This document shows positions 1 through 36,450 of a stretch of 50,097 nt of DNA, one piece after another. Below the pieces are notes generated by a model. That model worked only from the letters and a program-made list of their open reading frames with translations, was not told the DNA's origin and made no database searches. Each line of letters starts with the position of its first letter. Position 1 is the stretch's first letter. This stretch comes from Bacillota bacterium (GTDB lineage: Bacteria; Bacillota; Limnochordia; DTU087): assembly GCA_012510855.1 (NCBI GenBank), contig JAAZHE010000011.1, positions 1-50,097 on the forward strand. The letters are read 5' to 3'. A program made the translations under genes and the position numbers.

Positions 1-381
1 CTGGTTGACCATTTGTATGTAATATCTAAGTCTAGCATACCCCTAACTAGGTCCGGCAGTGTTAGGTGATCGACCCCAAGAAAGAGAAGAGATATCTTTC
101 TTCTTTATGAAAAAAAACTTCACCAGATACAGAAGGAATACCAAGATCAGACCAGAAGTACTATTACTGGGTAAATACCGGCGGTGAAAAAATATCCACC
201 AAGAAGGAAATCCCAGTGGTTGGTTTTGATTTACCAGGAGGCAGCATCAAAAAACCGCCATGAAACCTGTTAACTGGTGGAGACTGCCCAGGCGTGGTAG
301 TTGGTACCGAGCCCGTAGGCTAGTCCCAAGGACTGGCCCGAAGTGACGAGGTGGTGGGTAATACCCGTGGCCAAGACAGTT

Positions 382-1212: not shown

Positions 1213-1275
1213 TCTAGGAGATGCAGCATCTGATGGATGGTGTATATAGCACCATCAGTTGTTAGGGGGACTCTC

Positions 1276-2244: not shown

Positions 2245-2253
2245 CCGATAGGG

Positions 2254-3504: not shown

Positions 3505-3525
3505 AGAGGAAGGAAGATCAGGACT

Positions 3526-4176: not shown

Positions 4177-4197
4177 AGCTTTGAAAGGAGCAGTTGT

Positions 4198-5016: not shown

Positions 5017-6473
5017 ACGAGTTGGTTGTAGCTAGTCTAGAAGTCAGTACATCCTCAGCTAAGTGTATTCTCTTTTCAATAAAAGACGGAGTAATCGCTG
5101 AAGTATCGGAGCGCTATGGGCCTGATGTTGCCGATGGCCCTACCCAGGACCCCCAGGGGGTAGTGGGTTGTGCCCTGAGCGTCCTGCGGCAGATGGTCCA
5201 AGCCGCGGATGAGCGGGGCCTCAAGATAGAAGCCATTGGCCTCACAGGGATTTGGCACAGTTTGCTGCTTCTGGATGACCAGCGGCAGCCTGTCCACCGG
5301 ATTAAAACATGGGTCGATCTTTCCGGGGCTGACCACGTGTCAGCCCTGCGACAGGATCGGGAATTGGTTGATAAGATGTACCATAATACGGGCTGCATGG
5401 TCAACGCAATCTACCCGGCCTGGAAGTGGCACTATTTGAGGACTTCCCAGCCTGAGCTGACAAATAAGACCAGGTTCATTGCTTCGCAAATGGAGTTTGT
5501 ATTTGAAGCCCTTACCGGAGACAGGGCCGTGTCCCGCTGTACAGCCTCGGGTTCAGGCTTTTTCAACATCAGCACACTGGACTGGGATGAAGATGTGCTG
5601 AGCCTTGTGGGACTGAGGAAAGACCAGTTTAGTCCCTTGGTAGAAGCTTTCCACACTGCCCCTCTGAGGGCGGAAATCGCAAGGCAAGTGGGACTGCCGT
5701 CAGGCATACCGGTGACTGTGGGCTGTGCCGACGGAGCAATGAATCAACTGGCTATCGGCGGTCTAGACACCAAGGCCATGTCCATGTCGGTGGGGACCAG
5801 CGGTGCCCTTAGGGCAGTGCACTTAGAGCCGAAGATCCCCAAGGAACCCTCCACTTGGTGTTATTATCTCACCAAGGGCCGGAGGATAGCCGGAGCCGCT
5901 GTCAATAACGGCACCAACTGCGTTGACTGGTTCCTCACCCTCCAGGAGGGAGAGCTCAAGAGTCAAGTTTATGATCAATACTCAAAGGGTATAGAACAAG
6001 TCAGGCGGGCGAAAGCTCCCATTTTCATGCCTTTCCTTTTCGGCGAACGAAGCCCAGGCTGGAATGAGCGAAGACCCGGCGGATTTGTGGATGTCAAGGC
6101 CTTCCACAACAAATACGACCTGTATTATGCAATCCTGGAAGGCATCCTGTTTACCATGCGGCAATGCTACGACATATTGGTGGAAGTCGGGGGCCGGCCG
6201 GAGGAAGTGTTGGTTTCCGGCGGCATTGTCAACTCGGCTCCCTGGATGCAGATGGCTGCAGATATCTTCCAGAGGGAAATCAAGGTAACCGCCACAACCA
6301 ACGAATCCACCGTGGGCGGAGCCCTGGTAGCTTTGGAGGCGGTGGGCGGCAGCGAGCAGGTAGCAGGCTACAAGCCGGGGATCGTGAAGTCATATAAGCC
6401 TGAGGCAGAGGCGGTGGAGCTTTACCAAGTCCGCTATCAAAGATACCTTGAGCTGTATAGAACGCTGGAATAG
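5013..6473 (+). CDS. FGGY-family carbohydrate kinase (gluconokinase-like)
   Basis: GTG 5013 overlaps the SDR stop (GTGA). N-terminal 'SLEVSTSSAKC' matches the D-x-G-T-S-x-K-like phosphate-1 region. The FGGY C-domain has 'GGIVNSAPWMQMAADIF'. 486 aa. Confidence 0.8.
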   Translation: MNELVVASLEVSTSSAKCILFSIKDGVIAEVSERYGPDVADGPTQDPQGVVGCALSVLRQMVQAADERGLKIEAIGLTGIWHSLLLLDDQRQPVHRIKTWVDLSGADHVSALRQDRELVDKMYHNTGCMVNAIYPAWKWHYLRTSQPELTNKTRFIASQMEFVFEALTGDRAVSRCTASGSGFFNISTLDWDEDVLSLVGLRKDQFSPLVEAFHTAPLRAEIARQVGLPSGIPVTVGCADGAMNQLAIGGLDTKAMSMSVGTSGALRAVHLEPKIPKEPSTWCYYLTKGRRIAGAAVNNGTNCVDWFLTLQEGELKSQVYDQYSKGIEQVRRAKAPIFMPFLFGERSPGWNERRPGGFVDVKAFHNKYDLYYAILEGILFTMRQCYDILVEVGGRPEEVLVSGGIVNSAPWMQMAADIFQREIKVTATTNESTVGGALVALEAVGGSEQVAGYKPGIVKSYKPEAEAVELYQVRYQRYLELYRTLE

Positions 6474-6483
6474 GAGGGGTTGT

Positions 6484-7722
6484 ATGGATAGGGCAGAGCT
6501 TCGCTCAAGATTAGAAGCCTGGCTGAACTCCTTGGACAAGAAACTGGAGAGGCTGCTTTTGCTCCCTCCTGATTATACTAGATTCAACTCCGGGGCAGGC
6601 CTAATCGTCCAAGAACTCTACGATATTCTGGGCGGTTCCGCGGAGATCGACATCATGCCGGCCTTGGGCTGCCATGAGCCTATGACCGATGCGGAGATTG
6701 AGACGATGTTCGGCACCAAGATACCCAAGGATCGCTTCATCCACCGCAACTGGCGGACTGATGTAGTGAAGCTAGGTGAAGTGCCGGCAGAATTCGTGCG
6801 GGAAGTTTCCGGTGGGAAGCTGGATTTTTCCATCGAGGTGGAAATCGACCCCAGGCTGCTCGACTCCAAGTACGATGTTATCATCTCCATCGGTCAGGTA
6901 GTTCCCCACGAGGTTGTGGGGATGGCCAACTACACCAAGAACATCCTGGTGGGCTGCGGTGGCAAGGGCATGATCGATAAGACCCATTTCCTCGGGGCTG
7001 TCAGCAACATGGAACAGCTGATGGGCCGTGACCACTCCTCTGTCCGGAAGGTGTTTGACTACGCAGAGGTGCATTTCCTCAAGGATTTACCCATTGAGTA
7101 TATCCTCACAGTGACCACCACCAAGGGTGACGTCACTACCATTGAGGGTCTGTTTTTGGGTAGGTCCCGGAAGAACTTCGAGCAGGCAGTTGCCCTCAGT
7201 CAGCAGAAAAACCTTGACCTACTTGATGAGCCTTTGGAGAAGGTTGTTGCCTACATCGAACCCGACCACTTTAAGAGCACATGGGTTGGCAATAAAGCTA
7301 TTTACCGCCTGCGGATGGCCATGGCCGATAACGGTGAATTACTAATCATCGCTCCCGGGGTGAGGCACTTCGGTGAGGATCCGCTGTTTGATGAGTTGAT
7401 TAGAAAATACGGGTATCGCGGTACGCCTTACGTCTTGGCTATGGTTGAGCAAAACATAGATCTCCAAGAGAATTTGTCCTCGGCAGCCCATCTAATCCAC
7501 GGTTCTTCAGAGGGGCGGTTTCGAATTGTATATGCTCCCGGCCACTTGACCCGGGAAGAAGTGGAAGGGGTGGGGTTTGAGTACAGGGACATCAACGAAG
7601 TTCTTAAAGTCTATGACCCCGCCAAACTGCAGGATGGGTTCAACACCGTGAACGGTGAGCACATCTTCTTTGTCAGCAACCCGGCACTGGGCCTTTGGGC
7701 GCTGAAGAAAAGATTCCAGTAG
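6484..7722 (+). CDS. LarA-family (lactate-racemase-like, DUF2088) putative nickel-pincer-dependent 2-hydroxyacid racemase/epimerase
   Basis: ATG 6484 follows RBS 'aggagggg'. 'PPDYTRF', 'GCHEP' and 'VVPHEVVGMANYTKNILVGCGGKGMIDKTH' reproduce the LarA D-x-T-R, His108, His174-(10)-Lys184-(16)-His200 pattern and spacing, aligned from memory to the L. plantarum enzyme. Confidence 0.7.
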   Translation: MDRAELRSRLEAWLNSLDKKLERLLLLPPDYTRFNSGAGLIVQELYDILGGSAEIDIMPALGCHEPMTDAEIETMFGTKIPKDRFIHRNWRTDVVKLGEVPAEFVREVSGGKLDFSIEVEIDPRLLDSKYDVIISIGQVVPHEVVGMANYTKNILVGCGGKGMIDKTHFLGAVSNMEQLMGRDHSSVRKVFDYAEVHFLKDLPIEYILTVTTTKGDVTTIEGLFLGRSRKNFEQAVALSQQKNLDLLDEPLEKVVAYIEPDHFKSTWVGNKAIYRLRMAMADNGELLIIAPGVRHFGEDPLFDELIRKYGYRGTPYVLAMVEQNIDLQENLSSAAHLIHGSSEGRFRIVYAPGHLTREEVEGVGFEYRDINEVLKVYDPAKLQDGFNTVNGEHIFFVSNPALGLWALKKRFQ

Positions 7723-22575: not shown

Positions 22576-22580
22576 ACTGT

Positions 22581-22778: not shown

Positions 22779-22916
22779 CCTAGACTTATGTTTTTAATGC
22801 GATATTTTGTGCAAATCAGCAGGGATTCCCAGAGACTGCGGGGAAGCAAAAAAGTGGAAGCGCACCAATGAAGATGATCAAACGGTCCCATCAGCCTATT
22901 TGAATATGTATTAACA

Positions 22917-23615
22917 ATGGGGTGGTTCTTTGTGAAGCGCTCGGAGATAAATGACCTTATGCGTAAGGCAGTTGAGTTTACGAAAAAGATGGGTTTTCAT
23001 CTGCCGCCCTTTGCCTTCTGTGGTCCAAAGGACTGGGAAACCAAGGGTAAGGAATATGATGAGATCAGTGATAACATGTTGGGTTGGGACATCACTGATT
23101 TCGGCAGCGGCGATTTTTACAAGGTAGGGCTATTGCTGTTTACAATTCGCAATGGCAATTTCAATGACAGTAGGTATACCAAACCCTATTGTGAGAAGCT
23201 GCTGATCGTGGAAGAGGAACAGATTACTCCTTTTCATTTTCATTGGAAGAAAATGGAAGATATCATCAACAGGGGCGGCGGCAACTTATTGATTCAGGTT
23301 TACAATTCTACCCAAGATGAAAAATTAGCTGACACCCCTGTTCAGATCTCCGTAGATTGCCGCAACTACACTGCACCAGCGGGAACCATCGTCCGATTGA
23401 CTCCAGGTGAAAGCATCACACTGGGTCCCGGAGTCTATCATCAGTTCTGGGGTGAAAAGGGAACCGGCACCGTTCTCGTGGGTGAAGTGTCCAAGGTCAA
23501 CGATGACCGAGTGGATAACAGGTTCTTGGACCAAATAGGTAGGTTCCCAGAGATCGAGGAAGATGAGGAACCCTTGTATCTTTTGTGCAACGAATACCCA
23601 CCGGCAAAGGACTGA
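22917..23615 (+). CDS. D-lyxose/D-mannose ketol-isomerase (cupin)
   Basis: It is closely collinear with D-lyxose isomerases as I recall them: 'KRSEINDL', 'HLPPFAF', 'LGWDITDFG', 'TPFHFHWKKMEDIINRGGGNL', 'GEVSKVNDDRVDNRF', 'LCNEY'. The start is ATG 22917 or GTG 22932. Confidence 0.85.
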   Translation: MGWFFVKRSEINDLMRKAVEFTKKMGFHLPPFAFCGPKDWETKGKEYDEISDNMLGWDITDFGSGDFYKVGLLLFTIRNGNFNDSRYTKPYCEKLLIVEEEQITPFHFHWKKMEDIINRGGGNLLIQVYNSTQDEKLADTPVQISVDCRNYTAPAGTIVRLTPGESITLGPGVYHQFWGEKGTGTVLVGEVSKVNDDRVDNRFLDQIGRFPEIEEDEEPLYLLCNEYPPAKD

Positions 23616-24132
23616 GTTACAGGAGCTGGTTGAAATTCATCTTTCTATCATGGAGGCAGGGTCCTATTGCCAGGATTCTGCCTTTGTCATACCTTCTTGG
23701 CCTCTAACCTTTGACCTGCTTCTACTCCGCCGCCCAGCTGTAAATGTCCCACCTCCAACAGGTCGCCTACATCTATGGTTCAGATTCCCACACAGTGCGT
23801 AAGCGGAAAGCTCTGCTCAAGATGGCATCCCTAAAGAGACAGCTTAAAAGGGTTTGTGTGACTCCGGTGGTAACACTGCGTTGCATCATGGCGATGCATT
23901 TTTTTGATCACCAAAGAATAGAATATAATGCCTGCGATGGCAATAAATAGAAAGCAAAGGAGGTGGGCAGAAGAAGCAAGATAGCCTACAAGCCAAACAT
24001 GACAAAACCCAATGAAAAACGCAACGGGACCCGTTTCGTAGAGAAATCAGTACCAACCAACGAGGATGCTCGCGTCGACATAAGTGTGCTTTCGTGGGAA
24101 ATTTCTGTAGACGCAGGAGGGAGGATTTCTCG

Positions 24133-26037
24133 ATGAAGGGTAAACGCTGTATTTTCGTTATCAGCCTGGTGCTTCTTATTCTGCTGAGTCTCTGCGGGCT
24201 TGGGATAGCACAGCCTATGTACAAAGAGGCTCCAATGTTGGCGGAACTGGTTAAACAGGGCCAACTCCCGCCTGTAGAGGAGAGGCTGCCCAGTGAGCCG
24301 TTGGTCGTTGAACCTGTAGAGGTGATCGGTAAGTATGGTGGAACGTGGAATAGAGTAGCGCTTTCACCAACCGATACCCGGATCAGGGATAGGATGGGTT
24401 ATGAAACCCTGGTTAGATGGGGCAGAGATGGAGTCTCCATCGTCCCCAATCTGGCAAAATCGTGGGAACTAAAAGATGACGGAAAGACATATGTGTTCTA
24501 CCTAAGAGAAGGGGTCAAGTGGTCCGACGGACATCCCTTTACCGCTGATGACGTGCTCTTCTGGTATTACGATGTCATGCGGAATGAGGAGATTACCCCA
24601 GTATTTCCCGCTTGGCTGACGGCCGGAAATGAGCCGGTAGAAGTGGTAAAAGTCGATGACTACACAGTCGAGTTTAGGTTCGCAACTCCACACTCCTTGT
24701 TCCTCTACTACCTAGCCGGTCCAGATACCGGAGCCTTGATGTTTAACCATCCCAAGCACTACATGAAGAATTTCCATCCCAACTACACCCCCAAAGAGGA
24801 ACTGGATGCCAAAGTGGCGGAGGCCAAATTTGAGTCATGGTTCCAGTTGTATACCCAAATGGCTGAGCCCAACCTCAATAAGGATCTTCCTACGTTAAGA
24901 CCATGGGTGCTTCAGAGTGATCCTACATCCACTCGCATAGTTGCCGAGAGGAATCCTTACTACTGGAAGGTAGATCCAGAGGGCAACCAGCTGCCATATA
25001 TTGACAGAGTGGCCTGGGACATTGTCCAGAGTGTAGAGATGGCAGTCATGAAGGCGGTATCCGGAGAAATAGACATGCAGGGAAGGCACATGTCTATCTA
25101 TGATTACCCACTGCTAATGGAGAATCGGGATAAAGGCAACTATGATGTCTACCTATGGGATGAGGGCAAAGCGGGTACCGCTTTCTATATTAATCAGAAC
25201 GTAACCGGGGATGAAGAGACAGCCAAGCTGGTGCGCAGTATTGAGTTCCGGAAGGCTCTTTCCCTGGCCGTTAACCGAGACCAGATCAATGAGCTAGTAT
25301 ACTTGGGGCAGGCTTCAGCCTGTGAGCTCATGTATCCATATGAATCCCTTAGGAATGACCCGGAAATTAAGGCCCTGTATGAATATGACCCGGATGAAGC
25401 TGATAGGATCCTTGATAGTCTGGGACTCGACAAACGGGATGCCAATGGATTTAGACTGCTTTCCGATGGCCGTCCTCTTCAGTTGACTCTCCTTGTTGGT
25501 TTGGGATACCCGATGCACCCCGATGTTGCCGAAATTGTCAAGGTCCATTGGGAGAGTGTGGGTGTTAAAACCGGCCTGGATGTCGTCTCCCAGGAGTTGT
25601 GGTGGTCCCGGGTACAGGGTAATGAGTATCAAATAGTGCCCCATTACCTTGAGTTCTGCGAAGGGTTTATCGACATGAGCTATTCCAGCATGTGTATTGT
25701 TCCCTGCAGAGCCCTGACATACTGGGCTCCCGTCTGGGGGCTGTGGTATGAGAGTCAAGGCAGGAACGGCGAAAAACCCGATGGCGAACCCCGCAGACTG
25801 CAGGAGCTCTTCGATGAGCTGAGGGTTACTCCCGAACCCGAGGAGCAGGACCGGTTGGTGGAGGAGATCCTTGAGATATGGGCCAAGAATCTTTGGGTTA
25901 TTCCAACCGCAGGAAATTACAAGATCCCCATTGTGGTAAAAAGAGATTTCAAGAATGTGCCCAAAGAAGCAAGCTTAGCCTATCCGTATTGTAGTCCAGG
26001 TCACTTGAATCCAGAGCAGTTCTTTTTCGACAGATGA
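24133..26037 (+). CDS. ABC transporter substrate-binding protein, family 5 (Opp/Dpp/oligosaccharide type)
   Basis: ATG 24133 follows 'ggagggagg'. It has an N-terminal signal/anchor 'CIFVISLVLLILLSLCG', a size of ~635 aa and motifs such as 'GVKWSDGHPFTADDV', and it sits in the same locus as Opp-type permeases and ATPases. Confidence 0.85.
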   Translation: MKGKRCIFVISLVLLILLSLCGLGIAQPMYKEAPMLAELVKQGQLPPVEERLPSEPLVVEPVEVIGKYGGTWNRVALSPTDTRIRDRMGYETLVRWGRDGVSIVPNLAKSWELKDDGKTYVFYLREGVKWSDGHPFTADDVLFWYYDVMRNEEITPVFPAWLTAGNEPVEVVKVDDYTVEFRFATPHSLFLYYLAGPDTGALMFNHPKHYMKNFHPNYTPKEELDAKVAEAKFESWFQLYTQMAEPNLNKDLPTLRPWVLQSDPTSTRIVAERNPYYWKVDPEGNQLPYIDRVAWDIVQSVEMAVMKAVSGEIDMQGRHMSIYDYPLLMENRDKGNYDVYLWDEGKAGTAFYINQNVTGDEETAKLVRSIEFRKALSLAVNRDQINELVYLGQASACELMYPYESLRNDPEIKALYEYDPDEADRILDSLGLDKRDANGFRLLSDGRPLQLTLLVGLGYPMHPDVAEIVKVHWESVGVKTGLDVVSQELWWSRVQGNEYQIVPHYLEFCEGFIDMSYSSMCIVPCRALTYWAPVWGLWYESQGRNGEKPDGEPRRLQELFDELRVTPEPEEQDRLVEEILEIWAKNLWVIPTAGNYKIPIVVKRDFKNVPKEASLAYPYCSPGHLNPEQFFFDR

Positions 26038-26060
26038 GAGTAGATAAAGGGACTAAAAAA

Positions 26061-26090
26061 GCCAGGGGGTACACTCTGTGCCCCCTGGGC
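26061..26090. other. Intercistronic stem-loop after the binding-protein gene
   Basis: 'gccagggggtaca-ctc-tgtgccccctgggc' forms a ~13-bp stem. It is preceded by AAAAAA and not followed by a T-run on +. In the minus orientation it looks like a canonical terminator. Confidence 0.6.
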
Positions 26091-26209
26091 TATGCTAGAT
26101 GCAGCACAAAGCAGAATCAGCATATACTTGGCAAAAACCGGCATCTAGAAAATACGGGCCTGCGCTCCGAAAGGTGCGGGTTCAATAGACCAATCTCATC
26201 CTGGAAGGA

Positions 26210-27238
26210 ATGGCTGATGTGAAAAGAAGAGCTATTTGCTTTCTAGGCAAGGGTAAGGCGGTCCTGAAGGAAGAGGAAATACCTGGGGGCCTGATGCAAG
26301 ATGAGGTCTTGGTCCAAACCCTAAAGACCCTCATTAGCCCGGGGACAGAACTTGCCCTTTATACTGGGACCCATGTGGGGTTTAAGGATCCAAAGAATAC
26401 ATGGGCCAAATATCCTCATTATCCCGGTTATATATGTCTGGCTAGAGTTATAGAGATCGGTCCAGCTGTTTCAAATTTGAAAGTCGGCGATATTGTCTTA
26501 TGCAGCTTGAACCACTGCTCCCATGGAGTGGTGAAAAGCTCTGACTCCTTAGTAATCAAGATTCCCGATGACGCTGATTGGGAGGCCATGCTTTTTGCCA
26601 GAATGGCTTTGATTTCCTGCACAGCTTTAGTATTAGCCAGCTATTCCATCGGAGACAACGTTGCGGTAATCGGATTAGGGATCGTCGGCAATCTATGCGG
26701 GCAGCTCTTCCAATTGGCCGGAACAAACGTATATGGGATAGAAGTAGATCCTGGGAGGATTAGTCTTGCCAAGAGCACTGGGATAAGCCAGATCGTAGTT
26801 GGTGGGGAGACTTCTGATGTGAAACAAGAGCTCTTGGCTGCAACCGACAACTTAGGTATTGACATCGTGATTGAAGCTACAGGTATCCCCGGGCTTGTAA
26901 ATCAGGCCTTGGGACTGGTCAACAACCTGGGACAAGTCATAATGCTGGGTTCTACTCGGGGTCTTGTAAACATAGATGTATATACACATATTCATCGTAA
27001 AGGGCTTGTGGTCAGGGGGGCCCATGCGAACCTAATGAGTTCTCCCAGGGCAACTGGTGAAGCAGACGGAACGGGCAAATACCTAAGGAAGATGATTAAC
27101 CTTATCCACAATGACAGCCTAAAAGTGAAATCCCTTATAACCCATAGGATAACACCCGATGAGGCTGTGGACGCTTACAATTGGCTGCTTGAAAAGCCAA
27201 GTACAGCTTTGGGTGTGGTGATTGATTGGTGCAGTTAA
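26210..27238 (+). CDS. Medium-chain dehydrogenase/reductase (alcohol/polyol dehydrogenase-like)
   Basis: GroES-like N-domain ('VLVQTLKTLISPGTE', 'VGDIV') and Rossmann 'VAVIGLGIVGNL'. The usual catalytic-Zn 'GHE' position reads 'PGY', so it may be Zn-independent. An alternative start is GTG 26219. Confidence 0.75.
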   Translation: MADVKRRAICFLGKGKAVLKEEEIPGGLMQDEVLVQTLKTLISPGTELALYTGTHVGFKDPKNTWAKYPHYPGYICLARVIEIGPAVSNLKVGDIVLCSLNHCSHGVVKSSDSLVIKIPDDADWEAMLFARMALISCTALVLASYSIGDNVAVIGLGIVGNLCGQLFQLAGTNVYGIEVDPGRISLAKSTGISQIVVGGETSDVKQELLAATDNLGIDIVIEATGIPGLVNQALGLVNNLGQVIMLGSTRGLVNIDVYTHIHRKGLVVRGAHANLMSSPRATGEADGTGKYLRKMINLIHNDSLKVKSLITHRITPDEAVDAYNWLLEKPSTALGVVIDWCS

Positions 27239-27410
27239 TTGACCCAGAAGTTCACAATAGAGAAAGTCTTAGTCGATGGACATCGGTTTGCCTTTCTACG
27301 GTAAATATAATCACATATATTGTGAAGAGGGTAAGAGTAATAGCTAATATGGATTTAGCTGCCTTTATACTAAGGTGATAATGACCTGGCACAAGGAGGG
27401 GATGAGGTAC

Positions 27411-28604
27411 ATGGAAAGAGTCAGATTTGGTGTGATCGGTCTTGGTAACATTGGCCTTCACCATCTCAGCTATTTCCCAGAACTCAAAAATGCAGAGCTT
27501 ACCGCTATATGCGATATTGACAAGCGCAAGCTCACAGAGCTCAGGGCAGTAAGAGACTTTGACCATGCTACCGATGTCGGCTCTCTTGGCAGTGAGGTAG
27601 CCACCTTTACTGATTACGGGAAGATGCTAGATAGCGGCAAAGTAGATGCTGTACTCATCGCAACTCCACATTATTTTCACCCAGAAATGGCCATTGAGGC
27701 CTTTAGGCGGGGAATTCACGTGGTCTGTGAAAAGCCGGTGGCGATTACCGCTCGGGAAGCTCGGGAGATGAATACTGCCTATGCCGAATCTGGAGTTGTA
27801 TATGCAGCGATGTTTCAGATGAGGACCGATCCAGTATTTATGAGAATAAAAGAAATGCTGGAAGATGGCACCATAGGTGAAATCCGGAGAGTTAGCTGGA
27901 TTATCACCAGTTGGTTCCGTACCCAGGCATATTATGATTCCGGAGGTTGGCGGGGTAACTGGACCGGCGAGGGCGGCGGAGTATTGATGAACCAATGCCC
28001 GCATAATTTGGACCTCTTCCAGTGGTTCTTTGGGTTACCAAGACGGTTGAAAGCTTTCGCCTACCTAGGCAAGTGGCATGATATAACGGTAGAAGATGAT
28101 GTCTCTGTTCTGATGGAGCTGGAGAATGGGGCTCCTGCCGCCTTTATCACCACTACTGGTGATACTCCAGGCACTAATCGATTGGAGATTACGGGCAACA
28201 ATGGGAAGCTGGTACTAGAAAACGGTAAACTCACTTTCTTTGAGCCAGAGGCACCTGTACAGAAAATTTTAGAGGAAAGCCAACAGCATTTTTACTCTGT
28301 AAAGCCAAAGGTAATAGAGATCGAGGTAGAGTCTAAAGATCATGGACATAAGTATATTACCCAAAACGCCATCAACGCCATACTAGAAAACGAAGAATTA
28401 ATCGCTCCGGGAACCGAAGGGCTCAAGTCTGTGCAATTGGCCAACGCTATGCTCCTTTCCGGGCTAAGAGACAAGACCGTGGAGGTGCCAGTTTGTGAAG
28501 ATGAGTTTGACCAACTACTAGAAGAACTGCGGGAGCATGAACGCAAGCACTCTCCTGACAAAGCCTTCGATTGGGATGCATACTTGAACAGGCTTAAGGA
28601 CTGA
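27411..28604 (+). CDS. Gfo/Idh/MocA-family oxidoreductase (long form)
   Basis: ATG 27411. 'VRFGVIGLGNIGLHH' and 'GIHVVCEKPV' are present. 'WRGNWTGEGGGVLMNQCPHNLD' is typical of glycoside/inositol-type members. It has a C-terminal extension of ~60 aa. Confidence 0.85.
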   Translation: MERVRFGVIGLGNIGLHHLSYFPELKNAELTAICDIDKRKLTELRAVRDFDHATDVGSLGSEVATFTDYGKMLDSGKVDAVLIATPHYFHPEMAIEAFRRGIHVVCEKPVAITAREAREMNTAYAESGVVYAAMFQMRTDPVFMRIKEMLEDGTIGEIRRVSWIITSWFRTQAYYDSGGWRGNWTGEGGGVLMNQCPHNLDLFQWFFGLPRRLKAFAYLGKWHDITVEDDVSVLMELENGAPAAFITTTGDTPGTNRLEITGNNGKLVLENGKLTFFEPEAPVQKILEESQQHFYSVKPKVIEIEVESKDHGHKYITQNAINAILENEELIAPGTEGLKSVQLANAMLLSGLRDKTVEVPVCEDEFDQLLEELREHERKHSPDKAFDWDAYLNRLKD

Positions 28605-28654
28605 CCCTAATTTTTAGCTTTACTAACAGTATAGCTCAAGAGGGAGGTTATCAA

Positions 28655-29491
28655 ATGAAGTTGTCTATTTGCCACTACAGTTTCCACCGCCGCTGGGAAA
28701 AGGAGAAATGGACGCCCTTGAGGCTTTGTGAAGAAGTGAAGGCTCTAGGAATTGAGGCTGTTGATTTCCATGCCCGCTTACTGGGCAAGATGGACGGAGT
28801 TGTTGAGGAGATCAAGAGTGCGCTGTCCAAGACGGGGCTGGCTTTATCGGGCCTTTCCCTGTCTACAGATTTTAACCTTGAAGATCCCGAAGCCCAACAG
28901 AAAATGATCAAGAACACCATCGACTGGATGCGGGTTGCGGCTGAGGTCGAGGCTCCGGTATCGAGGATTTTTGGCGGTTATCTTGCCAACAGGCTGGAAA
29001 TCGATGAAGAGACCCGCAAGGCTGTTTATCAGAGGTTGATCGATGCTTTGGGAACTGTCGCCCGAGAGGCAGAGAAACTCGGCCTTGTACTAGCCCTCGA
29101 GAATCATGGAGGTCTTCCCTGTACTGGCGAGGAGCAGGTTGAAGTCATTGAGGCAGTTGGCTCGCAATATCTGCGGGCCACTATCGATGTGGGCAATTAC
29201 CTGCAGGGCGGTCAGGAGGCAGTTGACGGCACCCGGGCTGCGGCTAAGTACTGTGCCTATGTGCACTTTAAAGACTACAAGAAATATCCCGATCCGCAAA
29301 TGCCCTGGGGTTGGAACATTGAGCCCTGTACAGTGGGTAAGGGTGATGTAGATCATCTGGGCTGCCTCAGGGAGCTCCAAGCGGTAGGCTATGACGGTTA
29401 TATTGCCCTTGAGTACGAAGGGAAAGATGATGAAGCCGTTGGGGTGCCCGAGAGCGTCGAGTTCATGAAATCTGTAGTCGCGAAGCTCTAG
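28655..29491 (+). CDS. Xylose-isomerase-like TIM-barrel protein (sugar phosphate isomerase/epimerase family)
   Basis: 'VLALENHGG', 'ATIDVGNY', 'YVHFKDY' and 'YIALEYEG' give the E/D/H/E metal-site pattern of the AP_endonuc_2 fold. Confidence 0.8.
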   Translation: MKLSICHYSFHRRWEKEKWTPLRLCEEVKALGIEAVDFHARLLGKMDGVVEEIKSALSKTGLALSGLSLSTDFNLEDPEAQQKMIKNTIDWMRVAAEVEAPVSRIFGGYLANRLEIDEETRKAVYQRLIDALGTVAREAEKLGLVLALENHGGLPCTGEEQVEVIEAVGSQYLRATIDVGNYLQGGQEAVDGTRAAAKYCAYVHFKDYKKYPDPQMPWGWNIEPCTVGKGDVDHLGCLRELQAVGYDGYIALEYEGKDDEAVGVPESVEFMKSVVAKL

Positions 29492-29513
29492 CCTTTATCA
29501 GCCAGTCCATATA

Positions 29514-29546
29514 CCCAGGATTCATCTCGCGTAGATGAATCCTGGG
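29514..29546 (+). other. Perfect 14-bp stem-loop between the TIM-barrel gene and the permease genes
   Basis: 'cccaggattcatct-cgcgt-agatgaatcctggg'. There is no T-run downstream. Confidence 0.6.
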
Positions 29547-29688
29547 CGCTGTCTCAGCAGCTTACAATATTAAGTCAAGCCGATGATTACACGATGCTTG
29601 ACGAGGTTTTCTCGCGGCTCGGCCACTAGCTCGGATGGCACAAAGGCTGGATAAGTGTTCTCGCCTGATTACAAAAGGGGGCGATACC

Positions 29689-30675
29689 TTGTCGACCTAC
29701 ATCCTGAGGCGGATAATCGCGACAATCCCCACCCTGATTTTGATATCAATAGTCTCATTCATCATAATCCAACTGCCGCCCGGGGATTTTCTTACCTCCT
29801 ATATGGCTCAGCTCAGCCAGACTGGAGAGACGGCCGATGAAGCCATGTTAGCGGCGCTGAAAAAGCGTTACGGGCTTGATAAACCCATGTACGTTCAGTA
29901 TTTCATGTGGATTCGGGGAATCTTGCTTAGGGGCGATTTTGGTCAGTCCTTTCAATGGAACAGGCCGGTGAGTGATCTTATCTGGGAGAGGCTGGGACTG
30001 ACTGTACTAGTCTCCTTTTGTACTATGATTTTCACCTGGATAGTCGCGTTCCCTGTAGGTGTGTACTCGGCGACCCACCAGTATTCAATAGGAGACTACA
30101 TCGCTACATTCATTGGATTCATTGGAGTTGCTACACCGAGATTCATGATCGCCTTGGTGCTTATGTGGGTGGCATATGCATACTTTGGCCAGAGTGTTGG
30201 TGGGCTTTTTTCACCGGCCTTTGTGGATGCCCCATGGAGCTTTGCCAAGTTCATCGATATGCTCAAACACCTATGGATACCCATCATAGTCATCGGTATG
30301 AGCGGTACAGCTGGCCTTATAAGAACTTTTCGGGCTAATCTGCTGGATGAATTGAATAAACCATATGTGGATACGGCGAGGGCCAAAGGTGTGCCAGAGG
30401 GGAGACTGCTCTACAAATACCCTGTCAGGGTGGCTTTGATTCCCTTCATAAGTACTGTTGGCTGGTCTCTGCCGGGACTAATCTCTGGTGAGACGATAAC
30501 ATCAGTGGTATTAAGTCTACCTACTACAGGCCCTTTGCTTCTTCGAGCACTTCAGAACCAGGACATGTACCTTGCTGGAAGCTTTGTGATGCTGCTCAGC
30601 TGCCTGACAGTGGCAGGAACGCTAATATCGGATATATTGCTGGCCGCAGTAGACCCCAGGATTAGGTACGACTGA
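29689..30675 (+). CDS. ABC transporter permease (OppB/DppB type)
   Basis: The ORF opens at 29635. TTG 29689 lies ~7 nt after 'aaaggggg' and gives the family-typical N-terminus 'LSTYILRRIIATIPTL'. The EAA-like loop is 'YVDTARAKGVPEGRLLYKY'. Confidence 0.85.
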   Translation: MSTYILRRIIATIPTLILISIVSFIIIQLPPGDFLTSYMAQLSQTGETADEAMLAALKKRYGLDKPMYVQYFMWIRGILLRGDFGQSFQWNRPVSDLIWERLGLTVLVSFCTMIFTWIVAFPVGVYSATHQYSIGDYIATFIGFIGVATPRFMIALVLMWVAYAYFGQSVGGLFSPAFVDAPWSFAKFIDMLKHLWIPIIVIGMSGTAGLIRTFRANLLDELNKPYVDTARAKGVPEGRLLYKYPVRVALIPFISTVGWSLPGLISGETITSVVLSLPTTGPLLLRALQNQDMYLAGSFVMLLSCLTVAGTLISDILLAAVDPRIRYD

Positions 30676-30729
30676 TAGCTTCAGCCTACAGCCGGCGTGT
30701 AGAGATAAACGGGGATTAGGAGGAAGCTT

Positions 30730-31878
30730 ATGACCGGTGTGCGTGTTAAAAAGAGCGGCGCGAAGGCATTCTTACCGGAACCGGAGCCGAGGACTGAAGA
30801 AAAACTATACGTTGCGTCTCAGTGGCAGCTGATGTGGTGGAAATTCCGCAAGCATCGGTTAGCCCTCGTAAGCGGGATCGTGCTGATACTCATATATACC
30901 CTTGGGATATTCTGCGAGTTTTTTGCACCGTATAATCCCAACGCGTTTGACACCCAGTATGTTTACGCGCCGCCGCAGGTACCTAGGTTTTTCACTAAAG
31001 ATGGCTTCAGTTTAAGACCCGTTGTCTATGGATACAAGAGACAAATAAACCCCGAGACTCTTAGGCGAACCTATGTACCAGATCCTGACAAGGTATATCC
31101 CATTTACTTCTTTGTTAGAGGTGAGCCCTACAAACTGCTGGGACTGTGGGATACAGACATTCATCTTTTCGGAGTTAAGGAAGGTACGATGTTTATCTTA
31201 GGCACTGACCGAATGGGAAGGGATATGTTTTCCAGAATCCTATACGGAGCGAGGATATCCACTTCCATCGGTCTGGTGGGAGTGTTCGTGAGTTTTGTCT
31301 TAGGCATATTGGTAGGGGGATTCTCAGGATACTATGGAGGGGTAGTTGACCATGTGGTTCAGCGGCTCATCGAGTTCTTGAGAAGTATCCCCACCATCCC
31401 GCTATGGATGGCTCTCAGCGCTGCACTTCCCGCTCATTGGCCTCCCCTTAGGGTGTATTTCGGCATAACAATCATCCTGTCGCTGATAGGATGGACTGGG
31501 CTGGCCAGAGTGGTAAGGAGCAAGTTTCTCTCCCTGCGGGAGGAAGACTTTGTCAAGGCTGCTCGTTTTTGCGGAGCCAGCCAGACTAGAATCGTCCTAC
31601 GCCATATGGTGCCATCCTTCCTCAGCCATATCATAGCATCCATTACCTTAGCCATCCCCGATATGATCCTTGGTGAAACAAGCCTAAGCTTTCTTGGAGT
31701 TGGGCTTCGTCCGCCCGTCATCAGCTGGGGAGTTCTTCTACAAGAAGCCCAAAATGTGAGGACAGTAGCTCTAGCTCCGTGGCTCCTCTTACCTGGAGTT
31801 TTTGTCGTGATTACTGTGCTCGCGTTTAACTTCCTAGGTGATGGGCTGCGGGATGCGGCTGATCCCTATACAAGATAG
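30730..31878 (+). CDS. ABC transporter permease (OppC/DppC type) with long N-terminal extension
   Basis: 'GTDRMGRDMFSRILYGARIS' and the EAA loop 'FVKAARFCGASQTRIVLRH'. RBS 'aggagg'. Confidence 0.85.
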   Translation: MTGVRVKKSGAKAFLPEPEPRTEEKLYVASQWQLMWWKFRKHRLALVSGIVLILIYTLGIFCEFFAPYNPNAFDTQYVYAPPQVPRFFTKDGFSLRPVVYGYKRQINPETLRRTYVPDPDKVYPIYFFVRGEPYKLLGLWDTDIHLFGVKEGTMFILGTDRMGRDMFSRILYGARISTSIGLVGVFVSFVLGILVGGFSGYYGGVVDHVVQRLIEFLRSIPTIPLWMALSAALPAHWPPLRVYFGITIILSLIGWTGLARVVRSKFLSLREEDFVKAARFCGASQTRIVLRHMVPSFLSHIIASITLAIPDMILGETSLSFLGVGLRPPVISWGVLLQEAQNVRTVALAPWLLLPGVFVVITVLAFNFLGDGLRDAADPYTR

Positions 31879-31891
31879 GGGGCTTGTCCAT

Positions 31892-32899
31892 ATGAGTAAG
31901 CTCTTGGAGATCAGGAACCTCAAGACATACTTCTTTACCGACGAAGGTATTGTCAAGGCCGTAGATAGGGTTAGTTTCCATGTTGAACGAGGGAAGACCC
32001 TAGGGGTGGTCGGTGAAAGCGGCTCCGGTAAGAGTGTCACCGCTCGGTCAATCTTGAGGATAGAAGGCGCCAGAGGGAGAAGTGTAGATGGAGAGATACT
32101 CTTCCATCGGGCTCCCGGTGATACGGTGGATCTCGCAAAACTTCATCCAACGGGCCCAGAGATCAGAAGTATTAGGGGTAAGGAAATAGCTATGATATTT
32201 CAGGAGCCGATGACGGCTCTCAGCCCTGTCCATACAATTGGAAACCAGGTCATGGAGGCTATTTTGCTGCATCAAGATGTGACTAAGGAGGAAGCAAGGG
32301 AACTAGCCTTAGATATACTGAAGAGGGTCGGGATCCCCAATCCTGAGCGGAGGATCGATGAGTATCCCCATCAGCTTTCTGGGGGTATGCGCCAGCGGGC
32401 AATGATAGCCATGGCGCTTTCGTGTCACCCTAAGCTCTTGATCGCCGATGAACCGACAACTGCCTTGGATGTTACTATCCAGGCTCAGATACTGGAACTA
32501 ATGAAAGAACTTCAAGAGGAGCTGGGGACTGCCATTATGATGATCACCCACAACTTGGGTGTCATATCCGAGATGGCAGATGATGTCGTAGTCATGTATT
32601 TAGGTAGAATCGTTGAAAGTGTGTCTGTAGAAGGCCTTTTTTACAACCCCGCGCATCCCTACACCAAGGCGCTCTTGCGGTCAATACCTAGGGTGGGAAA
32701 AAAGGTCGAGAAAAGGCTGGAGTCCATTAAAGACGTAGTGCCGGATGCATATAACATACCTTCAGGGTGTACGTTCCATCCCAGATGTCCTGAGTTTCAG
32801 GAAGGGTTTTGTGATGTATATGTGCCTGAGTTGGTCGAGCTCGCGCCCGGACATCAGGTAAGCTGTCTCCTTTACAATGGGAGGGAAAGGGATGCGTAG
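31892..32899 (+). CDS. ABC transporter ATP-binding protein (OppD/DppD type)
   Basis: ATG 31892. Walker A 'GESGSGKS', signature 'LSGGMRQR', Walker B '[12 protein letters not shown]', and an oligopeptide-type C-terminal Cys motif 'GCTFHPRCP'. Confidence 0.9.
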
Positions 32900-33926
32900 A
32901 GAATGCATACTGGAAGTAAGAAACTTAAAGAAGTACTTTCCCATCCGCGAAGGATTCCGCAGAAAGGTTGCCGGCTACGTGAGGGCCGTTGATGATGTAA
33001 GCTTTGCTGTGAGGGAAGGAGAAACACTTGGGCTGGTGGGTGAAAGCGGTTGCGGTAAAACCACCATAGGGATGTGTATTCTCCGGGGTTTGCAACCTAC
33101 CGCAGGGGAAATCCTTTTTAAGAAGCGAGATGGAGAAATTGTACATCTAGAGAAACTGGGGGAGAATGAACTAAGAGAACTTAGGAAAGATATCCAGTTG
33201 ATTTTCCAGGACCCTTATTCCTCCCTGAACCCCAGGATGACGATTCGAGAAATAATTGGTGAACCCCTTCTGGTACACGGTGTTGCAAGGGGTAAAGAAC
33301 TCAGAGATAGCGTGGAGGAGTTGATGCTCAAAGTAGGTCTCAGGCCTGAGTATATGAACAGGTACCCCCATGCGTTCAGCGGGGGACAGAGGCAGCGGAT
33401 AGGTATAGCCAGGGCTTTAGCTCTCAACCCCAGATTAGTTGTCTGTGATGAGCCGGTATCATCCCTTGACGTATCGATTCAGGCACAGATACTCAACCTC
33501 CTCAAAGACCTCCAGGAAGAGTCGCAGCTCACTTACATCTTTATCTCCCACGATCTCGGTGTAGTTCAGCACATCAGCGATCGGGTAGCAGTGATGTATG
33601 TGGGGAGAATAGTAGAGCTAGCCGATACCGGCGAATTGTTTGCGAATCCAAGACACCCCTACACCGAGGCACTGCTTTCGGCAGTTCCCAAACTAGATCC
33701 CAAAGCCGCCTCCAGAAGGATCCTATTGAAGGGTGAAGTAGCTGATGCATCCAATCCCCCGCCGGGGTGTTACTTCCACCCAAGGTGTAGGTATGCAGAG
33801 GACATCTGCCGCAGGAAGACCCCGGTACTGGAGGACATATACGGTGGGGATGGCGCAAAAAAGCATTACGCTGCATGTCACTTTGCCCAACAGCTCAATC
33901 TCAAGGGTATCGAAGCAATTGCGTAG
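32892..33926 (+). CDS. ABC transporter ATP-binding protein (OppF/DppF type)
   Basis: ATG 32892 overlaps the upstream stop. 'GESGCGKT', 'FSGGQRQR', '[12 protein letters not shown]', 'GCYFHPRC'. Confidence 0.9.
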
Positions 33927-33970
33927 TGTTGGCTTCTTGTTCTACTTGCCCAGGATTCATCATCCAAAGG

Positions 33971-33999
33971 GTGAATTTATGATCTGAGGGTTGTATAAT
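33971..33999 (+). promoter_or_regulatory. Candidate sigma-A-type promoter upstream of the long GH51-like gene
   Basis: -35 'gtgaat' (3/6 match), a 17-nt spacer, and a perfect -10 'tataat' (33994-33999). It would leave a ~190-nt leader. This is a by-eye prediction only. Confidence 0.3.
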
Positions 34000-34193
34000 G
34001 CCGGGTCTTAGATTTAGGATATCCAAAAGGTAATGCCCACAGGCGACAGGGAGTCAATCGAGAGGACTGCCCATGACATGATTAGATACTCAAGATGACT
34101 GCCCGGAATCTAGCCCATTGGAAGAGTATGTGACCTTAGATTTCACTAGACTTCTTCTACGTCACTGAAACAAATTTAAAGGAGAGAGATGCT

Positions 34194-36356
34194 GTGAGAA
34201 TAGAACCAGGGCACTATGGTAAAAACCTCTTGGAATTTGTCCGGACAGCCGACAACCACAAGCCGACAATCGATATCTTCCCCGACCAAAAAGGCCATCG
34301 GATTCCGGCTACCATCTTGGGCAACTTCCTGGAACATCTGGGCTTTGCCATTTACGGCGGTGTTTGGGCGCAGCTTCTGGCTAATCACGTGTTTCACCAA
34401 GAACACCACCTGGATGCCGATTCCCTGGCAAGATTGCTCCGGGATGGAGAGCTGTTGGTCGATCTTCCCAACCGGGATCCTAAGGATATCCCGCCATATT
34501 GGATACCGGGCCTGGTGGGCGCAACTGGGTTTGGAGTTGCCATTTTGGATGATGAGACTAAGGACGGCCTTCCGCTGCCCTGGGCTGTCCTGGAGGGCAA
34601 TCAAGGCCATGTCTATCCCGCTGCCGGAAGACTCGGACACGGCATTAGGCTGAGTCCCGGCGGTCAAAGCTCAGGCATCCGGCAGTCAGTATTTCTCCCA
34701 ATCCACCGGGTGACAGGATATGAGGGGCTGGCCTGGGTGCGGAGAGAAGATGGGGCAAAGGCCGGCACAACGGAACTTACGGTAGGCTTTAAGCGTCGGG
34801 GTTCGTCGCAGGTGCTGGCGGAAAGTAAGCTAGAGCCTATATCCTCCAAGTGGTCTAAAATTGCATTTCACCTGGAACTACCTGCAGGCAGCGTTGCCGA
34901 TTTTGAACCAGTAGATTTCTTCATTGCTGCCTTTGGAGCATCAGACATTCTGCTGGATAGAGTCGAGCTCTATCCCGAAGATCATATCGAAGGCTTTGAT
35001 CCTGAGATAGTCCAGCTGACTAAGGATTGGAGAGTACCCCTTCTCAGAGGTCCGGGTGGGAACTTTGTCAGCGGTTATCACTGGCGGGATGGGGTTGGCC
35101 CTCGGGATCTCCGGCCCACGAGGCCAAATCCTGCCTGGGGAGGCTTGGAATACAACGACTTCGGCACCGATGAATTTGTGCGCTTTTGCAGGCTGGTGGG
35201 AGCAGAGCCCCATATGTGTGTCAATATCGGTACAGGCACGCCGGAGGAGGCAGCTGCCTGGGTAGAATACTGCAACGGCTCTGTAGATACCTCCATGGGC
35301 AGACTGCGGGCGGAGAACGGGCATCCCGAACCTTACAACATCCGCTACTGGGAAGTTGGCAATGAGATCTACGGCTGCTGGCAGATCGGCAACTGCGGTT
35401 CCGAGGAGAATGCCAGGCGGTACAAGCTGTTTGCCGAGGCCATGCGGAAGGTTGACCCCAATATTGTACTCATCGCGACCGGCAATCCCTTTGATTTCGT
35501 CACACCGGAGCCCCACTGGAGCTTCGCAACGGCGGATCAAAACTGGCACCGGGCACTTATGGAAGAAAACGGCAGTAGTGTGGAATATATTTCGCTCCAT
35601 GCCTTACCTGAAAACACCAGGCGCATGGAAGATAAGAGCGATGAGCATGCCTATTACGGCCTCATGGCCCATCCAACCCAATGGGAAAGGGACGATCTTC
35701 CCCAACTCCTGGACCTGATGAAAGAATACGGAGTTAAGGAGCCGAAACTAGCCATCACCGAATGGGGCATCCTCGGTCCCAATGCGCGCCGCCCCCGGGT
35801 GGAAAATTTCGGTGAAGTAATCTACGCAGGGCTGTTCTTGAATCTGATGATGCGCAATGCCCCGCATATACCCATCGCGAATGCCACTGCCCTCCTCCAC
35901 GGAGGATGCATCCGCAAGGCTGGAGCGAAGACCTTTGTAGATGCCCAGTATTATGCCATCCAGCTGTACAACGACGTAGTGTCCCGCTATGCCCTTCCCT
36001 GCCGGTATCAGGGGCCGGGGTATGATATTGCAGGCGGCACGGAGACTACCCCTGTGGTGAATGATGTGCCATATCTTGATGCTGCTGCCTGCATTTCTCA
36101 AGATGGCTCTGAGCTGGTGGTCTATTTGGTGAACCGCCATCTTACTTGGGAAATGAGGCCGGTAATTAACCTCAACGGCTTTGTCCCTAAAGGAGCCGAG
36201 GGAGTTCACATGGTCTCATCGGATCCTGTGGCGGTATCCTCACCCTTGGAGCCCGAGAGGTTTAAGCCGGAGCCGTGTGATGTTACTGTCAGCGGCGATA
36301 GCCTAGAATTAGTGCTGCCGCCGTGCTCGCTGACCCGAGTGCGGCTGAGTCGGTGA
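34194..36356 (+). CDS. GH51-family glycoside hydrolase (arabinofuranosidase-like) with ~200-aa inserted domain
   Basis: GTG 34194 follows 'aaaggagagag'. 'GNFLEHLGFAIYGG' and '[20 protein letters not shown]' are present, with acid/base 'YWEVGNEIYG' and nucleophile 'LAITEWGI'. About 230 residues separate the first two motifs, versus ~40 in the 13394 AbfA. Confidence 0.8.
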   Translation: MRIEPGHYGKNLLEFVRTADNHKPTIDIFPDQKGHRIPATILGNFLEHLGFAIYGGVWAQLLANHVFHQEHHLDADSLARLLRDGELLVDLPNRDPKDIPPYWIPGLVGATGFGVAILDDETKDGLPLPWAVLEGNQGHVYPAAGRLGHGIRLSPGGQSSGIRQSVFLPIHRVTGYEGLAWVRREDGAKAGTTELTVGFKRRGSSQVLAESKLEPISSKWSKIAFHLELPAGSVADFEPVDFFIAAFGASDILLDRVELYPEDHIEGFDPEIVQLTKDWRVPLLRGPGGNFVSGYHWRDGVGPRDLRPTRPNPAWGGLEYNDFGTDEFVRFCRLVGAEPHMCVNIGTGTPEEAAAWVEYCNGSVDTSMGRLRAENGHPEPYNIRYWEVGNEIYGCWQIGNCGSEENARRYKLFAEAMRKVDPNIVLIATGNPFDFVTPEPHWSFATADQNWHRALMEENGSSVEYISLHALPENTRRMEDKSDEHAYYGLMAHPTQWERDDLPQLLDLMKEYGVKEPKLAITEWGILGPNARRPRVENFGEVIYAGLFLNLMMRNAPHIPIANATALLHGGCIRKAGAKTFVDAQYYAIQLYNDVVSRYALPCRYQGPGYDIAGGTETTPVVNDVPYLDAAACISQDGSELVVYLVNRHLTWEMRPVINLNGFVPKGAEGVHMVSSDPVAVSSPLEPERFKPEPCDVTVSGDSLELVLPPCSLTRVRLSR

Positions 36357-36450
36357 TGGCGGGTTGAAGTAGTGCGGGGCCTCTCGGAAAAGAAGGCCCC
36401 AAGGCTAAGAGGCGGATTTCTATAAACCGCGTAAGAAACTGCTTAACAGT

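Follow-up and report, generated by a model that had tools for sequence, protein, structure and literature searches.

A four-gene cassette of a solute-binding protein, two dehydrogenases and a TIM barrel beside an Opp-type importer: a candidate variant of keto-sugar glycoside processing

Introduction

Why should genes for three putative sugar-modifying enzymes stand between the gene for a family-5 solute-binding protein (SBP) and the permease and ATPase genes of an Opp-type ATP-binding cassette (ABC) importer? This arrangement occurs at positions 22917-36356 of a 50,097-nucleotide stretch (hereafter the window) of contig JAAZHE010000011.1, which belongs to the Bacillota bacterium assembly GCA_012510855.1 (Limnochordia; DTU087). 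The three genes encode a medium-chain dehydrogenase/reductase (MDR), an oxidoreductase of the Gfo/Idh/MocA family (Gfo) and a xylose-isomerase-like TIM barrel (TIM). An original prediction described the locus as an importer interrupted by these genes and proposed that an oligosaccharide or glycoside containing arabinose or another pentose may be imported and processed partly by a redox/lyase route. That glycosides are widely handled through 3-keto intermediates, without hydrolysis, is a recent insight, and the gene architectures put to the test so far are few. On sequence evidence, the locus is probably a new gene arrangement for a known type of processing, that of glycosides by way of keto sugars; it has a putative MDR component, and one of its dehydrogenases has been swapped in nature.

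Results

A conserved cassette rather than an interrupted importer

Among the gene contexts of TIM and MDR homologs, we found the order binding protein-MDR-Gfo-TIM on six other metagenomic contigs (L028, L032, L047, L121, L122 and L123), so the three enzymes go with this binding protein, as had been proposed. Five of these contigs (all except L121; 37-42% G+C) share 71-72% identity with the window in the SBP, 58-62% in the MDR and 66-74% in the TIM. The sixth, L121 (47% G+C), showed 81% identity in the SBP, 78% in the MDR and 82% in the Gfo, and stops inside the Gfo gene, before the TIM. The organisms carrying the other cassettes have a G+C content of 37-47%, compared with 52% here. On L122 the Gfo-TIM pair is inverted, and on L123 a LacI regulator lies upstream. 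None of the six contigs has Opp permease genes directly behind the cassette, and four of the six carry a second binding-protein gene nearby (41-44% identical).

Three protein queries detected no orthologs of the SBP, MDR or TIM in 40 related genomes, four of the same genus included, and a DNA query did not find the locus in 14 of these 40, all four same-genus genomes among them. A plasmid collection searched with the TIM and MDR proteins gave no match. Cassette-free relatives keep the flanks, namely an ABC exporter, a 342-aa Gfo, the lyxose isomerase and the GH51-like protein, at 77-90% identity. In the relatives these flanking genes adjoin other, uninterrupted SBP-OppBCDF sets, in same-genus genomes at matching places; one same-genus GH51-like ortholog, 87% identical, precedes a different SBP-OppBC set. 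Because the other cassettes have no permeases behind them and same-genus genomes hold uninterrupted SBP-OppBCDF sets, we replaced the idea of an interrupted importer. The gene order first reported is real, but the conserved unit is better described as binding protein, MDR, Gfo and TIM, an accessory cassette placed before the OppBCDF block.

Near-identical DNA was present in anaerobic-digester, sludge, leachate and bioreactor metagenomes of 11 studies. Metatranscriptome contigs (four runs from three studies) yielded short pieces of low depth with 95-100% identity, mostly at least 99%. These pieces touch every gene from the binding protein to OppD, plus the GH51-like gene, and run from the TIM gene into the following spacer and from that spacer into OppB; none bridges a whole spacer, and DNA carry-over is possible. 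They are a weak hint that the locus is expressed and no proof of co-transcription, which we infer for the cassette genes.

The Gfo enzyme and its exchange

The cassette Gfo matched the P2B11 glucuronide 3-dehydrogenase (PDB 8TDI) with 251 bits (E 2e-73) over residues 13-387, at about 38-40% identity as counted from the alignment. The next solved chains, 3Q2K and 3Q2I, which we take to be WlbA UDP-GlcNAcA 3-dehydrogenases, scored less than half as much as 8TDI, with 119 bits for the higher-ranking one. Five of the six P2B11 pocket residues are identical in the cassette enzyme (Trp179, Arg181, Tyr185, Asn205 and His209), and Asn147 is replaced by Gln (residues as named in bioRxiv 10.1101/2024.03.25.586180, whose numbering is the chain numbering plus 10). 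The cassette Gfo is thus a close relative of a proven glycoside C3-dehydrogenase and is itself predicted to oxidise C3; because of this relationship, a keto-sugar route is a good reading of the locus. None of the NCBIfam equivalogs reached its cut-off for any cassette enzyme. Scores against cut-offs were 58/750 for BT_2158, 36/650 for BT_2159 and 77/650 for LgdA, and for the inositol models 110/355 for IolG, 56/450 for IolM (Rossmann part only) and 41/290 for IolE; the IolO model did not match the TIM at 28655.

The genes found around close relatives of the Gfo are in line with oxidation of glycosides at C3. ThuA-family genes adjoin relatives that are 69% identical to the cassette Gfo (L003 12630-13589 and L008 11328-12098), and ThuA with its Gfo-family partner ThuB presumably forms 3-keto-disaccharides in rhizobia. 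On L006 a close relative lies beside a GH4 glycosidase, an enzyme family with an oxidation-elimination mechanism. On L004 (1891-14772; also on L005), an operon encodes a GntR regulator, two TIM barrels, a Gfo, UxaC, UxaE, a short-chain dehydrogenase (SDR), 6PGD, a 2-hydroxyacid dehydrogenase and an FGGY kinase. Its Gfo is 63% identical to that of the window and its SDR is 57% identical to the product of the window's 4198 gene, and the operon looks like a glucuronide-cleaving set fused to uronate catabolism. Within the window, the enzyme pairing had also been said to recur at 21464, 11361, 37062 and 41447; these are indeed further Gfo or TIM genes, but they are single, non-adjacent and at most about 31% identical to the cassette genes.

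The five low-G+C cassettes carry a different Gfo of 344-348 aa, only 27% identical to that of the window. The best solved relatives of this 347-aa type are uncharacterised proteins, DgpA2 and YvaA, and no ortholog of it was found in this genome. In a tree, the Gfo type of the window and L121 falls inside an 18-row clade (support 94/98), several members of which come from metagenome-assembled genomes labelled Firmicutes bacterium by NCBI. A paralog from this genome, 75% identical and located on contig C41 (locus L112, 3857-5976), groups in the same clade; the gene behind it encodes a TIM barrel of a different subfamily. This second TIM is 85% identical to the L001 TIM and only about 26% identical to the cassette TIM; the C41 genes are probably this genome's P2B11-type pair. 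Given the 27%-identical type in the low-G+C cassettes, the resident 75%-identical paralog and the lack of a 347-aa ortholog in the genome, we conclude that a resident Gfo paralog displaced the original Gfo in the window and L121, while the SBP, MDR and TIM stayed orthologous.

The MDR and TIM-barrel enzymes

The MDR had been noted to lack the usual GHE zinc motif, and the comparison with its orthologs bears this out. Together they carry SPGTE and PGY[IA] where the canonical MDR on locus L031 has C..GSD and PGHE, and the structural-zinc loop is missing as well. The TIM scored 127 bits against Pfam family PF01261 (gathering threshold 31). Its residues Glu149, Asp178, His204 and Glu253 are invariant in 28 sequences and would be the metal ligands. 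Both enzymes gave confident models: the MDR fold retrieved generic polyol dehydrogenases in Foldseek, and the TIM model (pLDDT 96.5, TIM fold) matched epimerases, isomerases, the C-glycoside lyase DgpBC, the glycal hydratase AtHYD and YcjR to about the same degree. Because the matches are generic for the MDR and spread over epimerases, isomerases, a lyase and a hydratase for the TIM, neither search decides the chemistry.

The TIM family is well conserved and spread over many phyla. A Gfo gene lies within 4 kb in only 17 of 49 loci, with none in the other 32, and two-gene modules of a Gfo and a TIM of this family occur in several phyla. The cassette TIM is only 25-26% identical to the TIM barrels that accompany close relatives of the cassette Gfo. 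In other phyla, members of the same TIM family stand beside URO-D-family genes (L030/L037 7930-10985, L031/L038 and L028 5167-6089). CbiM/PDGLE cobalt-transport genes adjoin the TIM on L028 and lie about 8 kb away on L030/L037, where the TIM is also near sulfatases. The P2B11 enzymes are stimulated by Co2+ (bioRxiv 10.1101/2024.03.25.586180).

The binding protein

Among solved structures, those most similar to the binding protein were Thermotoga maritima 5IPW (E 6e-133), the pectin-binding SPH1118 (E 1e-97) and the alpha-galactoside-binding MelB (E 3e-37). Similarity to SPH1118 and MelB extends over the full length, and peptide and nickel binders align with only a short N-terminal part, of about 110 residues for the classical peptide binders. 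These alignments support assignment to the sugar-binding (oligosaccharide) branch of family 5, cluster C, and the sugar-type ligand proposed at the outset remains the expectation, as the closest solved relatives with known ligands bind sugars. Among the ligand contacts of SPH1118, Arg294 is kept, the stacking Trp594 is replaced by Tyr and Arg57 is not kept, with an Arg-rich loop (TRIRDR) at that position. Oligogalacturonide was considered as a ligand and dropped as a call, since the SPH1118 contact residues are mostly gone. The protein belongs to a strongly expanded family of about 650 aa, of which this genome encodes five members and its relatives as many as 17.

Gene layout and boundaries

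All genes from 22917 to 36356 lie on the + strand (Table 1). Their positions and families were confirmed by Pfam gene by gene, including the D-lyxose-isomerase-type cupin upstream and the GH51-like gene downstream; the first approximately 260 residues of the GH51-like protein (34194-34970) match no Pfam family. Three starts look right as originally given: the ATG at 24133 is preceded by GGAGGGAGG, relatives and 8TDI begin at the Met equivalent to 27411, and the TTG at 29689 is preceded by GGGGG. The binding protein carries an export signal, and the MDR, Gfo and TIM, which have none, are predicted to be cytoplasmic enzymes.

Table 1. Features of the locus and its context (+, forward strand).
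Feature	Position	Strand	Basis and remarks
Hexuronate/hexonate catabolic operon (context)	343..7722	+	NCBIfam, ESM atlas
D-lyxose isomerase cupin	22917-23615	+	PF07385, E 1e-100
Terminator-like hairpin with T-run, between lyxose isomerase and binding-protein genes	23877..23898	+	Promoter/terminator scan
Secreted family-5 (cluster C) solute-binding protein, 634 aa from ATG	24133..26037	+	SBP_bac_5, E 7e-67; N-terminal signal sequence
Stable stem-loop, about 13 bp, no U-run, just after binding-protein stop codon	26061..26090	+	Spacer z-score -2.9; 0/200 shuffles fold as well
MDR-superfamily NAD dehydrogenase, YcjQ/BchC-like branch	26210..27238	+	ADH_zinc_N clear, ADH_N barely above cut-off; without catalytic and structural zinc motifs
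Gfo/Idh/MocA dehydrogenase, 397 aa (reading frame open from GTG 27375, 409 aa)	27411..28604	+	Relative of P2B11 glucuronide 3-dehydrogenase; no signal peptide
Xylose-isomerase-like TIM barrel, 278 aa	28655..29491	+	AP_endonuc_2 / PF01261
Hairpin, 15-bp perfect stem, 5-nt loop, no U-run, in 197-nt TIM-OppB spacer	29513..29547	+	z-score -4.2
OppB-type permease, TTG start (reading frame open from 29635)	29689..30675	+	Pfam
OppC-type permease	30730..31878	+	Pfam
OppD-type ATPase	31838..32899	+	Pfam
OppF-type ATPase	32877..33926	+	Pfam
Second copy of 14-mer GCCCAGGATTCATC of the 29513-29547 hairpin, 22 nt past OppF stop	33948..33961	+	
GH51-like protein, 720 aa (neighbour)	34194..36356	+	Residues 260-720 are a GH51 arabinofuranosidase domain

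The terminator-like hairpin is the likely upstream limit of the cassette unit. The promoter and terminator scan returned as many sites as shuffled sequence did, so no operon map was drawn from it. The 14-mer GCCCAGGATTCATC has no further exact copy in the 2.27-Mb assembly, and a site on contig C187 differs by one base; the pair could be a recombination scar or paired RNA elements that bound the permease block. Together with the strong U-less hairpins after the binding-protein and TIM genes, this repeat fits a composite origin or differential expression and proves neither. An Rfam search of 21000-37500 found no RNA family.

Substrate and the neighbouring operon

The arabinose or pentose substrate of the original prediction was not retained. 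The lyxose isomerase and the GH51-like gene are set apart from the cassette by the hairpin at 23877-23898 and a 267-nt spacer, respectively, they persist in cassette-free relatives, and other cassettes adjoin GH95 or GH13 genes in their place; for these reasons the idea loses support, and the retention of the GH51-like gene in relatives without the cassette makes its link to the cassette weak.

The window also holds a hexuronate/hexonate catabolic operon. It encodes an RpiR regulator, a 2-hydroxyacid dehydrogenase, KDPG aldolase, an FGGY kinase, a D-mannonate oxidoreductase (NCBIfam 385 bits, cut-off 281) and a nickel-dependent putative hexonate epimerase (605 bits, cut-off 500). A further 416-aa protein matches no Pfam family, and an ESM-atlas feature search, the sole basis for this assignment, placed it with 'glucuronate isomerase family' clusters (score 0.99), which suggests a divergent protein resembling UxaC or glucuronate isomerase; it is unrelated to the enolase-like gene of L121. 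The operon may form a uronate route through the nickel-pincer epimerase. Genes for a hexonate epimerase (55% identical) and for a 2-hydroxyacid dehydrogenase are found on L123 at a distance of about 5 kb from its cassette. The glucuronide homology of the Gfo, the UxaC/UxaE context on L004 and this operon are a weak pointer to an acidic sugar as the substrate.

Discussion

We consider it reasonably probable that the cassette acts on an imported glycoside by a 3-keto route of some kind. Its more specific form, in which oxidation is followed by epimerisation and reduction as by Escherichia coli YcjQRS, is a tentative choice made by analogy, and we rank it slightly ahead of elimination. Outside the cell, the binding protein would bind a short oligosaccharide or glycoside for import by the ABC system; this ligand probably contains a hexuronic or other acidic sugar. 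In the cytoplasm, one NAD enzyme would oxidise the sugar at C3, the TIM barrel, drawing on the acidity beside the keto group, would invert the configuration at an adjacent carbon (C4 or C2), and the second NAD enzyme would reduce C3 back, leaving the sequence redox-neutral overall. We infer that an unusual glycoside would in this way become a common one that other enzymes can split. The original observation is confirmed and its interpretation is partly supported: the keto-sugar part is well founded on the nearness of the Gfo to a proven C3-dehydrogenase, but for the lyase step, YcjQRS-like epimerisation fits at least as well.

Epimerisation comes ahead because two dehydrogenases of different families with one TIM repeat the make-up of YcjQRS, because YcjQ and the cassette MDR both have GTE and no GHE, because the exchange of the Gfo suits a general redox partner working with a specific pair of MDR and TIM, and because most loci of the TIM family have no Gfo within 4 kb. 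A swap between Gfo subfamilies so distant is expected if this enzyme serves the generic side of the scheme, and the scarcity of Gfo partners is easier to explain for an epimerase or isomerase than for an obligate 3-keto-glycoside lyase. Several observations weigh against the epimerisation scheme as drawn. The cassette TIM resembles YcjR only at the level of the fold (hhalign probability 7%; Foldseek TM 0.77-0.81), and the same Foldseek search also returns the lyase DgpBC and the hydratase AtHYD. Identity is low between the Gfo and YcjS (25%) and between the MDR and YcjQ (23-29%), and the closest characterised relative of the Gfo belongs to a cleavage pathway, not to epimerisation. The cassettes share no glycosidase that could act on the proposed product, and tblastn did not find canonical UxaC/UxaE in this 85%-complete genome. 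The galacturonide site of SPH1118 is mostly lost from the binding protein (Arg438 to Tyr, Arg466 to Gln, Arg496 to Met, Glu216 absent; PMC9314435), and the idea of an acidic ligand is therefore weak.

By analogy with the cleavage pathways, it is possible, if somewhat doubtful, that the Gfo oxidises C3, the TIM eliminates the aglycone (and perhaps hydrates the glycal) and the MDR then acts on the freed 3-keto sugar as a reductase. Of the characterised enzymes, Oxido1 from the glucuronide-cleaving P2B11 set is nearest to the Gfo, and the L004 Gfo follows two TIM genes and precedes UxaC/UxaE, an order that release of free uronate would lead one to expect. Free hexuronate would supply the operon at 343-7722 with substrate, and the two-gene Gfo-TIM modules in several phyla and the Foldseek matches to DgpBC and AtHYD count here in favour. 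The published work describes the enzyme modules as interchangeable between organisms, which would fit the Gfo swap as well. Against elimination, the characterised cleavage sets that we compared use no MDR (DgpA/DgpBC and LgdA/LgdB are not known to have one), and each includes another TIM-type or DUF1080 protein, which serves the other anomer or the hydration step; the cassette has one TIM and no DUF1080. The low identity of this TIM to the barrels beside close Gfo relatives, and the 32 of 49 TIM-family loci without a nearby Gfo, speak the same way.

The two dehydrogenases and the TIM might instead oxidise and isomerise a non-glycosidic solute (for example a cyclitol, a polyol, a rare sugar in free form or a sugar acid) carried by the binding protein, in a pathway like an inositol route or with chemistry like that of IolG/IolE/IolI. 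We regard this as improbable. The same three families make up what we take to be the T. maritima inositol route (Gfo IolG, MDR IolM and TIM barrel IolO), weak NCBIfam matches to IolG, IolM and IolE were seen, and hexonate and 2-hydroxyacid genes lie near two cassettes; yet the inositol-family scores are far below their cut-offs and IolO gave no match. Likewise, cluster-C binding proteins also take small non-glycan ligands (PMC9314435), but the closest solved relatives with known ligands bind oligosaccharides, and glycosides or nucleotide sugars are the substrates of the enzymes closest to the Gfo. That a peptide-binding protein simply serves the Opp system, with the three enzyme genes as unrelated passengers, seems very improbable to us. 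The absence of the locus from the 40 relatives in the protein searches and from the 14 in the DNA search, the long spacers and strong hairpins between blocks, and the 14-nt repeat that borders OppBCDF speak for such a chance mosaic, and 5IPW was deposited as an oligopeptide binder. The gene order is nevertheless kept on six contigs of very different G+C content, classical peptide binders match only the N-terminal part of the binding protein, and 5IPW has no known ligand (PMC9314435).

The cassette, whose four genes include that of its own binding protein, makes a clean test case. It brings in an MDR enzyme type not seen in cleavage pathways and shows the natural replacement of one dehydrogenase by a distant paralog. 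A bolder proposal, which we think unlikely, holds that it is a laterally mobile keto-sugar module in which the zinc-less MDR and the new-subfamily TIM give specificity for an unusual (perhaps uronic-acid) glycoside, the Gfo is freely exchangeable and the product enters the hexuronate route through the nickel-pincer hexonate epimerase. If this is true, the exchangeable Gfo would show in nature the swapping of modules that has until now been demonstrated in vitro only. Knowing the ligand would assign a function to a large, expanded binding-protein family in plant-biomass-degrading anaerobic-digester bacteria.

Comparison with known systems

Several systems follow a scheme of oxidation, elimination, hydration and reduction: Alistipes AL1-4 and Bacteroides BT2156-2160, the Agrobacterium set GlycDH-OGE-HYD-Gfo, DgpA-DgpBC and LgdA-LgdB. 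Like the cassette, they pair a Gfo-type dehydrogenase (or an equivalent) with a xylose-isomerase-like TIM acting on 3-keto sugars, and the cassette TIM model shares its fold with DgpBC and AtHYD. They differ in that they are not known to have an MDR and the cassette has no DUF1080 protein; moreover, the AL enzymes are periplasmic, whereas those of the cassette are predicted to be cytoplasmic.

The P2B11 set, Iso1-Oxido1-Oxido2-Iso2, works by the same scheme and comes from a human-gut Gram-positive bacterium, and its Oxido1 is 8TDI (Nasseri et al., bioRxiv 10.1101/2024.03.25.586180). Oxido1 is the closest solved relative of the cassette Gfo, which has no export signal, and both come from Gram-positive bacteria. 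The P2B11 set contains two genes each for Gfo and TIM proteins, lacks an MDR and has no transporter close by; by contrast, the cassette has a single TIM of another subfamily and an MDR instead of the second Gfo. On the side of uptake, SPH1118 from Sphingomonas sp. A1 and 5IPW belong to the same family-5 branch as the cassette binding protein and align with it over the full length, although Arg57, Arg438, Arg466, Arg496 and Glu216 of SPH1118 are not kept.

In E. coli, YcjQ is a D-guloside 3-dehydrogenase (MDR), YcjR a 3-keto-glycoside 4-epimerase (TIM) and YcjS a D-glucoside 3-dehydrogenase (Gfo), and the gene order ycjNOP-ycjQ-ycjR-ycjS-...-ycjV places the enzymes between the permease and ATPase genes of an ABC importer (PMC11543891). 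The E. coli importer has a family-1 binding protein and MalFG-type permeases, whereas the one here is of the Opp type, and the E. coli cluster carries phosphorylases that are absent from this cassette. The identities to YcjQ and YcjS given above (23-29% and 25%) fall short of orthology, the similarity between TIM and YcjR is not significant by sequence, and the hhalign probability of 99.4% between the MDR and YcjQ is a level that any MDR would approach. The likeness lies elsewhere: YcjQ has GTE, with GNM at the GHE position, and the cassette MDR has GTE and GY[IA]; the E. coli scheme is redox-neutral with two dehydrogenases; and the same three families, with one gene each, stand within an ABC-importer operon.

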